DNA of 64,000 nt from an uncultured Chloroflexia bacterium. GTDB lineage: Bacteria > Chloroflexota > Limnocylindria > Limnocylindrales > CSP1-4. The stretch covers positions 1,344,001 through 1,408,000 of the forward strand of contig OY970218.1 in NCBI GenBank assembly GCA_963713975.1. Direction: 5' to 3'. This document shows positions 52,455 to 52,665 of this stretch, piece by piece; the first letter of the stretch is position 1, and each line of letters starts with the position of its first letter. The notes beneath the pieces are model-generated. The model saw only the letters and a list, made by a program, of their open reading frames with translations. It was not told the origin of the DNA and ran no database searches. Both the position numbers and the translations under genes were made by a program.

Positions 52455-52487
52455 TTACCAGCCCTTGAAGACCTGGATCGGTGCCAC
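52455..52487 (-). CDS. 10-aa micro-ORF MAPIQVFKGW (not in ORF track)
   Basis: Perfect AAGGAGGT SD at 52494-52501, 6 nt before GTG; C-terminus resembles LKGF of next peptide. Confidence 0.55.
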   Translation of the reverse strand: MAPIQVFKGW

Positions 52488-52665
52488 GCTCGTACCTCCT
52501 TGCGGCCTCCGTGTCCTAAGAACACGAAAACCGACCTGACTCGAAAGCCGGTCGGTTGCACTACTCACTCCGCCCCCACCCTAAGTGCCCAATTCAGGTG
52601 GCGGCATCAGCGCGTTCCGAGCGTTTCCTTGCTTGCACAGTACGTTGGTACTAGTGCAGGGCCGG

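Follow-up and report, generated by a model that had tools for sequence, protein, structure and literature searches.

A conserved micro-ORF behind a predicted c-di-GMP-II riboswitch in Chloroflexota-like bacteria, with an encoded end that resembles that of a putative secreted peptide

The locus described here lies on the minus strand of a 64,000-nucleotide (nt) stretch of DNA from an uncultured Chloroflexia bacterium (GenBank assembly GCA_963713975.1, contig OY970218.1, positions 1,344,001 to 1,408,000), which we call the window and number from its first letter. Our subject is a 10-codon open reading frame (ORF), hereafter the micro-ORF, and its relation to the ORF of 29 amino acids (aa) that follows it. 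Both belong to a cassette with the order MalT-like/SARP regulator, cyclic di-GMP-II (c-di-GMP-II) riboswitch, micro-ORF, 29-aa ORF, HD-GYP phosphodiesterase and a fusion of DUF5317 with a major facilitator superfamily (MFS) transporter; the arrangement is syntenic in two bacterial families. An earlier note, made from the letters alone, had described a Shine-Dalgarno (SD) sequence, six nucleotides, a GTG-initiated ORF for MAPIQVFKGW, a TAA stop and 26 nt to the 29-aa ORF, and these letters are exact on the minus strand. The core of the locus reads as follows.

52494 to 52501, minus strand: SD sequence AAGGAGGT, with an AGGAGG core that is near-invariant in a 62-sequence alignment.
Between AAGGAGGT (52501-52494) and the GTG, minus strand: spacer ACGAGC, 6 nt.
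52455 to 52487, minus strand: micro-ORF, product MAPIQVFKGW, with GTG at 52487-52485 and TAA at 52457-52455.
52339 to 52428, minus strand: 29-aa ORF MKDRLMRALVALGAVAAMALAGGASLKGF, with ATG at 52428, stop at 52341-52339 and its own GGAGGA at 52441-52436.

Nine sense codons follow the GTG (GCA CCG ATC CAG GTC TTC AAG GGC TGG), and the gap between the TAA and the ATG at 52428 spans 52454-52429. By itself, an SD with a micro-ORF is unremarkable and not above chance, because the organism's own genome (3.62 Mb) contains 30 comparable ORFs, defined as 6-12 codons from an ATG or GTG behind AGGAGG. The sole member of this set with a [KR]-x-[WFY] ending is the micro-ORF. It rises above chance because it is conserved in relatives. 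A longer, 37-aa form, initiating at an in-frame upstream GTG at 52568 (52455-52568, minus strand) and running across the aptamer and hairpin of the leader, is not kept outside the window's genus.

Conservation was assessed first in loci anchored on the HD-GYP gene (L, G and g numbers below designate loci, genomes and genera, respectively). An HD-GYP orthologue is present in 146 of 151 sampled genomes of the family; 30 loci were taken, two of which are too short upstream. In 27 of the other 28, a GTG ORF of 9-10 codons, preceded by an SD and ending K-x-[W/F], lies ∼200 nt upstream of the HD-GYP gene, and the lone exception (L020) is frame-shifted. A larger, pooled set combined the HD-GYP anchors, a scan of named genomes for a 14-base aptamer word, a DNA search of the class and extra loci of one genus. 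Many of the matches listed by the word scan were due to chance, and only those with the aptamer loop motif upstream were kept. The query of the class-wide search contained the micro-ORF itself, so loci from that source are a biased sample. Among the 104 unique, high-GC loci that bear an aptamer and extend for 200 nt or more past it, 94 have an intact ORF of 5-10 codons ending [KR]-x-[WFY]-stop. None of the loci was seen to come from a cultured host. The counts include loci from unpublished genomes (L027 of G082, L239 of G474 and L249 of G494), and the genome tallies also include unpublished G139, G344 and G382; no claim made here depends on unpublished genomes alone.

Six of the ten loci that are not intact (L020, L078, L082, L104, L195 and L199) are frame-shifted, with the letters coding for K-G-W persisting. 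In few-contig assemblies (L078, L195, L199, L006, L082 and L104), frameshifts that strike the micro-ORF are often accompanied by frameshifts in the 29-aa ORF. Because the 29-aa ORF is often shifted too, we read the micro-ORF frameshifts as assembly indels; the affected loci look like cases of homopolymer indels, and we caution against counting them as gene loss. Of the remainder, L111 has lost its stop codon, L188 contains Ns, and L114 and L123 are from Paenibacillus. In these two Paenibacillus loci, the c-di-GMP-II riboswitch directly precedes an HD-GYP-like ORF with no small ORFs between, an arrangement in which the same feedback idea would take a simpler form.

Lengths, starts and stops were tallied in the pooled set before three miscalled loci (L078, L195 and L199) were removed. 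The micro-ORF has 10 aa in 78 loci, 9 aa in 11, and 8, 7, 6 or 5 aa (MIKSW) in one each, the changes being in whole codons. Start codons are GTG (77), ATG (18) and TTG (2), and stop codons are TAG (74), TAA (17) and TGA (6). In a second family, that of the genome holding L153, an HD-GYP protein of 42-55% identity is found in 50 of 61 genomes. All 29 assessable loci there (of 32) carry an ATG-initiated micro-ORF of 8-9 codons, such as MARQSIKGW, behind an aptamer.

The earlier note had proposed asking whether orthologous loci keep an SD and an ORF of roughly 10 codons, and had allowed that the ORF might be absent in relatives or its K-G-aromatic ending not conserved. SD and ORF are retained in the proportions just given (27/28, 94/104 and 29/29), and so is a basic-x-aromatic end. 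These counts bear on the possibility that there is no gene here at all, and that the letters represent an ORF present by chance, a partial and decayed copy of the last part of the 29-aa ORF, or a direct repeat in RNA or DNA, such as a protein-binding site. Several observations could be accommodated in this way: the 30 similar ORFs that the genome contains by chance, the nucleotide likeness between the 3' ends of the two ORFs (AAGGGCTGGTAA versus AAGGGCTTCTAG), and the persistence of the K-G-W-coding letters in the six loci with a broken frame. Yet frame, SD and stop are retained in both large sets, indels come in whole codons, the class of each terminal residue is held through changes of two or three bases (GGC to CCC, TGG to TTC or TAC, AAG to CGA), and among codon pairs that specify the same residue in the two ORFs, 52 of 152 differ in nucleotides. 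Comparative data thus largely refute this reading, and we regard it as very improbable.

The constraint on the micro-ORF appears at the level of residues. Across loci, the basic residue (K or R) is variously encoded by AAG, AAA, AGG or CGA, and the aromatic residue by TGG, TTC, TAC or TAT. The Gly between them is encoded by GGC, GGG, GGA or GGT, with P, A, S, T, V and Q as alternatives at that position. In genus g14, L186 and L193, the N-terminal half and the original SD have been lost, and [I/V]-K-x-W-stop is still there.

The earlier note had also asked whether the C-terminus of the micro-ORF product co-varies with that of the longer peptide, and it does. We compared the last five residues of the two products with those of shuffled pairs, using naive shuffles that ignore relatedness. 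In 65 loci, 111 of 325 positions are identical, versus 100.4 ± 3.3 after shuffling, a value reached in 2 of 10000 shuffles. In the second family (26 pairs), 73 of 130 positions are identical, versus 61.9 ± 2.2, a value reached in 0 of 10000; the strongest signal there is at position -4, with 9 identities observed and 3.5 expected. Matched changes are seen most directly within g24, where the paired endings are TLKGF/TLKGF in L225, L226 and L024, SLKGF/SLKGF in L228, TLKPY/TLKPY in L224, TLKPF/TLKPF in L230 and SIKGW/SVKGW in L231. The exceptions are DLKGY/SLKGF (L229) and an extended SLKGFER/SLKGF (L227). One genome, G400, has two complete cassettes with different endings (KGY/KGF in L229 and KPF/KPF in L230); either the two systems are paralogous or the bin mixes two strains. 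In the 10 loci where the long ORF has P at position -2, the micro-ORF never has G there, though G is its usual residue.

Thirteen loci have identical last four or five residues in both ORFs, and in each the copies differ by one to three synonymous changes. Because such differences persist in all 13, recent gene conversion alone does not explain the identity of the endings. The retention of residues through diverse codons, together with co-variation accompanied by synonymous differences, therefore argues for selection on the peptide itself. Consistent with this, the sequences are fairly described by the earlier note's phrase for the micro-peptide, a leader-free counterpart of the secreted peptide.

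Conservation concentrated in three residues beside the stop codon of a tiny ORF in a 5' leader could also suggest an arrest peptide. In that case, the nascent [K/R]-x-aromatic end, perhaps helped by a small-molecule cofactor, would hold the ribosome on the stop codon, and the stall would control the downstream ORFs, among them a MefA-like pump; the downstream transporter is indeed of the DHA3/MefA-like group. The ribosome, however, is a constant partner, and for that reason lineage-specific matched changes are unexpected under arrest, whereas the endings do vary and change together with the second ORF. All three stop codons are used, position -2 is free (G, P, A, S, T, V or Q), and, with a gap that ranges from 2 to 61 nt, no conserved structure for a stalled ribosome to open was seen downstream. 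We therefore find arrest hard to reconcile with the matched changes and rate it as improbable.

The 29-aa ORF has a positively charged N-terminal end, an uncharged stretch of 15 residues, an A-x-A-like site and then GGASLKGF. This layout is widely kept among 86 relatives: the product is exactly 29 aa in 77, the N-terminal region is net positive in all 86, and the uncharged stretch is 15 residues long in 75. Just before an almost invariant GGA[S/T/G], a small residue occupies -1 in 78 of 86 and a small or aliphatic residue occupies -3 in 85 of 86; from the GG to the C-terminus there are eight residues in 77 of 86. The window's copy is the sole signal-peptide-like ORF of such type in its genome, and an exact database look-up of the 29-aa peptide gave no match. 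From these features, the product resembles a Sec signal peptide that carries a signal-peptidase site, and its processing would release about eight residues (GGASLKGF).

Spacing between the two ORFs points to translational coupling in many loci, because the 29-aa ORF often begins 2-15 nt after the micro-ORF stop with no SD. It starts at most 15 nt past that stop in 31 of 86 loci, of which 6 have a GGAG/GAGG SD and 25 do not. An SD-like word is wholly absent before the 29-aa ORF in 26 of 86. The window's copy lies outside the short-gap class, given its 26-nt gap and its own GGAGGA. In a sizeable share of the family, ribosomes thus probably reach the 29-aa ORF by way of the micro-ORF.

Such coupling could be all that the micro-ORF does. 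As a pure translational adaptor, it would load ribosomes behind the riboswitch, shield the read-through RNA and feed the 29-aa ORF by termination-reinitiation, as at the Mycobacterium tuberculosis ppe2 B12 riboswitch, and its peptide would be functionless. The strong, near-invariant SD of the micro-ORF, set against the frequent lack of one before a 29-aa ORF 2-15 nt downstream, fits this proposal, as do ATGA-type overlaps of the two ORFs in L020, L082 and L227, a start region able to pair with the aptamer (see below), and the precedent described in PMC11260477. On the other hand, 50 of 86 loci have a gap of 16-35 nt (full range, 2 to 61 nt), and 44 of 86 second ORFs have a GGAG/GAGG SD of their own. 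Nor would an adaptor be expected to retain K/R and an aromatic residue through differing codons, to undergo matched C-terminal changes accompanied by synonymous differences, or to keep its ending when the ORF shrinks to 5-6 codons. A pure adaptor explains the position of the micro-ORF but not its residue pattern; we consider it unlikely, although it is the rival that we take most seriously.

Upstream of the micro-ORF lies a leader with the following elements, listed from the promoter-like site towards the SD.

52666 to 52695, minus strand: promoter-like site TTGACC-18 nt-TATAGT, matching the consensus at 10 of 12 positions.
52639 to 52652, no strand assigned: palindrome AGTAC-N4-GTACT, between the -10 box and the aptamer, conserved across genera.
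52543 to 52626, minus strand: c-di-GMP-II riboswitch aptamer (RF01786; 51.1 bits, E = 2e-10, full model length 1-84).
52618 to 52624, minus strand: 5' end of the aptamer, ACGCUCG, complementary to CGAGCGU at 52492-52486, that is, to the micro-ORF spacer and start codon.
52520 to 52557, minus strand: terminator-like hairpin T, with the stem 52557-52547 pairing with 52540-52529, followed by UUUUCGUGU.
52503 to 52533, minus strand: hairpin H2, 52533-52522 pairing with 52514-52503, in which the U-tract of T pairs with a downstream GRAGGCCG.

In the alignment, relatives keep the TATAGT and the GCGTATTGACC upstream of it. The palindrome occurs at 2 sites in the whole genome, compared to 0.55 expected, and its flanks vary complementarily; it could be the operator of some regulator or a 5' hairpin. 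An AGTAC half-site is also found at 52322-52318, just upstream of a second promoter-like site described below.

The c-di-GMP-II riboswitch, on which the earlier note is silent, appears to be the real organizer of the locus. Of the orthologous loci, 10 of 12 exceed the RF01786 gathering score, at 53.9-72.1 bits, and the two that do not are from genus g8. The divergent, below-threshold aptamers of this genus (L180, L182 and L184) are accompanied by a micro-ORF that is retained, ends RPW or RVW and has a TGA stop, and by a second ORF ending YRPF or YGLF. The window's own genome contains two further RF01786-like elements, at C1:856536-856620 (L001 1501-1585) and 818241-818325 (L003 1501-1585), scoring 53.6 and 37.3 bits. 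At its 3' end, each directly adjoins an SD, in one case that of a secreted 185-aa protein and in the other that of a methyltransferase-like ORF, and neither element is followed by a terminator hairpin or a micro-ORF.

The aptamer and the micro-ORF are connected by several possible pairings. The 5' arm of hairpin T is the 3' end of the aptamer, and the hairpin varies little, with 97.5% of cells paired in the 62-sequence alignment. H2 has 95.5% of cells paired and changes on both sides in 5 of 12 pairs, which gives it compensatory support. Because H2 uses the U-tract of T, the two hairpins exclude each other. The micro-ORF SD begins 19 nt past the U-tract, which places the start of the micro-ORF within the expression platform. 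Pairing of the 5' end of the aptamer with the spacer and start codon is possible in 83.7% of cells over the 62 sequences, and this helix is present in both the minimum free energy structure and the centroid from RNAfold. Such pairing would explain why the spacer is conserved and why GTG is used in 77 of 97 loci. In the ATG-start clades, GGAGGGCAC or AGAGGGCAC precedes the start in place of the aptamer-complementary spacer.

RNA libraries contain parts of this leader. Between 13 and 20% of the words sampled from this stretch of the window are present in 19 RNA runs, and contigs from four runs of four studies were compared at a likeness of at least 80%. A 222-nt contig spans 52339-52549 and so covers the 29-aa ORF, the micro-ORF and the hairpin; two others, each with one mismatch, extend over 52456-52549 and 52520-52631. 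Two contigs that stem from relatives, 444 and 320 nt long, reach from the aptamer to the start of the HD-GYP gene. These contigs are compatible with co-transcription of the aptamer, the micro-ORF and the 29-aa ORF. In run X4, contig depth falls about ten-fold from the aptamer and hairpin to the ORFs, a drop that we do not take as evidence of termination because conserved parts recruit contigs of many relatives.

Considered as a whole, the locus is, on balance, best explained by a real, translated micro-gene behind a c-di-GMP-II riboswitch, encoding a selected peptide that twins with a secreted one; we hold this with measured rather than strong confidence. The micro-ORF would be the first cistron of a leader under riboswitch control. 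In the absence of c-di-GMP, the 3' end of the aptamer would fold into hairpin T, and the freed 5' end could pair with the micro-ORF spacer and GUG. When c-di-GMP is bound, the aptamer would keep both segments, polymerase would read through, H2 would form, and SD and GUG would be open. The riboswitch is thus predicted to be an ON switch, because the 3' end of the aptamer overlaps hairpin T. Ribosomes would then make a peptide of 5-10 residues and, in many lineages, reach the 29-codon ORF through coupling or reinitiation.

The micro-peptide, ending [K/R]-x-aromatic-COOH, would match and co-evolve with the end of the 29-aa product, making it a leaderless twin of the secreted peptide produced in the cytoplasm. 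A single lineage-specific partner, itself a product of the cassette, may be the target of both peptides, which would tie intracellular c-di-GMP to a peptide signal. Candidates are the MalT-like/SARP regulator, the HD-GYP membrane sensor and the DUF5317-MFS, for which the micro-peptide would be a possible export substrate; present evidence does not discriminate among the three. Candidate roles for the micro-peptide are those of a ligand, of an antagonist, or of a twin of the secreted peptide that is itself exported.

A number of points weigh against a translated micro-gene with a functional peptide. Translation, a stable peptide and binding are predictions rather than direct observations, a free cytoplasmic peptide of 5-10 residues would normally be short-lived, and the RNA-library contigs may contain carried-over DNA. 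Six loci have a frameshift in the micro-ORF, and their attribution to assembly indels is our interpretation. At the RNA level, the window's aptamer scores 2.4 bits below the Rfam gathering score of 53.5, and the folding energy of the leader is no better than that of shuffles (z = -1.25). Pairing of the aptamer with the start region shows almost no compensatory change (double changes in 2 of 7 pairs) and is missing in the ATG-start clades. At the peptide level, the commonest state is W in the micro-ORF versus F in the long ORF (62 of 86), so that the two ends are usually similar rather than identical, and the co-variation comes from a few lineages, with shuffles that disregard kinship. Finally, the regulator was not found adjacent to the riboswitch in L055 or L227.

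The proteins that would serve as partners are encoded on either side of the two small ORFs, with a further promoter-like site between the 29-aa ORF and the HD-GYP start.

52765 to 56241, minus strand: regulator gene, 1158 aa, with Pfam AAA_16, Trans_reg_C and BTAD.
52278 to 52307, minus strand: second promoter-like site, TTCACC-18 nt-TAGAGT.
50816 to 52249, minus strand: HD-GYP phosphodiesterase, 477 aa, with Pfam HD_5 (E = 1.1e-40) and a membrane N-terminal domain of about 230 aa.
48601 to 50781, minus strand: DUF5317-MFS fusion, 726 aa, DHA3/MefA-like, with Pfam DUF5317, MFS_1 and MFS_3.

The N-terminal 380 residues of the regulator form a MalT-like STAND module (residues 96-467 match MalT in PDB 8bob_C, E = 5.6e-31; NCBIfam MalT, E = 1.2e-50, is below its cut-off), and the C-terminus consists of a winged helix and BTAD, as in SARP-type proteins. 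With the STAND module first and the SARP-type end last, the order is opposite to that usual in AfsR-type proteins; the roughly 450 residues in between have no domain match. The earlier note had attributed a TPR-like region to the regulator, for which we find no support: no Pfam TPR match was found in residues 248-947, its middle part, even at E values up to 10. In most of the long loci, the regulator gene is syntenic upstream of the riboswitch. We considered whether loss of the regulator is tied to decay of the micro-ORF, since G131 has no orthologue and shows the KGFER extension. L055, however, has no adjacent regulator and keeps an intact micro-ORF, and we draw nothing from the comparison.

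Downstream, the TAGAGT-like box of the second promoter-like site is retained in relatives in the alignment, and the HD-GYP gene may also be transcribed independently of the riboswitch. The N-terminal domain of the HD-GYP protein gives a weak match to MASE9 (E = 0.44) and shows no similarity to DUF5317. For the fusion protein, NCBIfam TIGR00900 (E = 1.5e-61) and Mef(A) (E = 8e-25) both fall below their cut-offs. Within g24, the regulator is the fastest-evolving of the three cassette proteins, at 49-74% identity, versus 68-82% and 58-90% for the other two; as a means of picking the co-evolving receptor this was set aside, because the faster evolution does not single the regulator out.

Parts of this arrangement resemble known systems. 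According to PMC11260477, the metE and ppe2 B12 riboswitches of M. tuberculosis control upstream ORFs (uORFs) with termination-reinitiation. The likeness lies in a short ORF in or just behind the expression platform, which here would govern the next ORF, and in stop-to-start distances that are short in part of the family. Here, by contrast, the ligand is c-di-GMP, the switch is probably ON, and the peptide is conserved residue by residue over two families, with an end that co-varies with the next, 29-aa product. In the literature collection that we searched, no description of a riboswitch/micro-ORF/secreted-peptide arrangement was found, and a search there on DUF5317 found nothing.

RRNPP-type systems of the Bacillota (Phr, PapR and AimP) use secreted pro-peptide signals with cytoplasmic receptors of the TPR-HTH kind. 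Similar here are a tiny, signal-sequence-like pre-peptide beside a large regulator, a predicted mature part of 5-8 C-terminal residues and, as in pherotypes, endings that diversify by lineage, with one genome holding two differing cassettes. The RRNPP pro-peptide criterion fits the 29-aa ORF only, because the micro-ORF has no leader. In other respects the systems differ: the protein proposed as receptor joins a MalT-like STAND ATPase to a SARP-type end and has no detected TPR, a leaderless second copy of the 'mature' peptide is encoded directly, the host is Chloroflexota-like, and a riboswitch stands before the entire unit, which is linked to an HD-GYP enzyme and an MFS protein.

Three further comparisons are more partial. 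Microcin C is made from MccA, a precursor of 7 codons with a C-terminal Asn, which is modified by MccB and exported by the MFS protein MccC. The micro-ORF shares with it a ribosomal peptide of fewer than 10 residues in many loci, an SD and start of its own, and an operon with an MFS exporter, but the conserved C-terminus is basic-x-aromatic, and no MccB-type adenylyltransferase is found among the cassette genes, which comprise the regulator, the HD-GYP and the DUF5317-MFS only. TnaC and the Erm and Msr leaders are short regulatory leader or arrest peptides, with macrolide-resistance genes among the genes they control. Size, leader position and conservation beside the stop codon are alike, whereas the motif described here co-varies with a second ORF and sits downstream, not upstream, of a terminator-like hairpin. 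MgrB, acting on PhoQ, is a small membrane protein that feeds back on a sensor. If the 29-aa product were a membrane anchor, it would similarly be a pathway-induced small product acting on a membrane sensor, in this case the HD-GYP. However, the uncharged stretch, at 15 residues in most relatives, is short for a membrane span, and the MgrB model has no role for a micro-ORF.

The arrangement is related to two known kinds of system, the riboswitch-uORF and the small secreted signalling peptide. A more far-reaching proposal, which we offer tentatively and think somewhat doubtful, is that the cassette forms a self-contained, c-di-GMP-gated circuit of two peptides from one transcript, a Sec-exported signal and, encoded ahead of it, a ready-made intracellular copy of its mature end, which would share one lineage-specific receptor and diversify in the manner of pherotypes. 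Either the MalT-like/SARP regulator or the membrane sensor of the HD-GYP protein would be this receptor. At high c-di-GMP, the cell would either act as though the signal had arrived or be blind to it, and receptor-peptide pairs would diversify like pherotypes, with endings such as KGF, KPY, KPF and KGW. A two-peptide circuit of this sort would be a new kind of system.

Annotation misses genes of 5-10 codons, and a function is known for very few of them. The micro-ORF has unusually strong comparative support for one of this size, together with a defined input (c-di-GMP, via the riboswitch) and a built-in partner (the 29-aa product). On a conservative reading, it would be a second, independent case of riboswitch control through a uORF, one that differs from the first in both phylum and ligand. 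If the matched endings mean a shared receptor, the state of a second messenger would be linked to peptide signalling in an undescribed way, and there would be a handle on DUF5317, the MASE-like HD-GYP sensor and the MalT-like/SARP regulator. The two-peptide circuit, if true, would include the first 'mature' signalling peptide under riboswitch control and would be the first pherotype system based on peptides to fall outside Bacillota-type models, in uncultured Chloroflexota-like bacteria.

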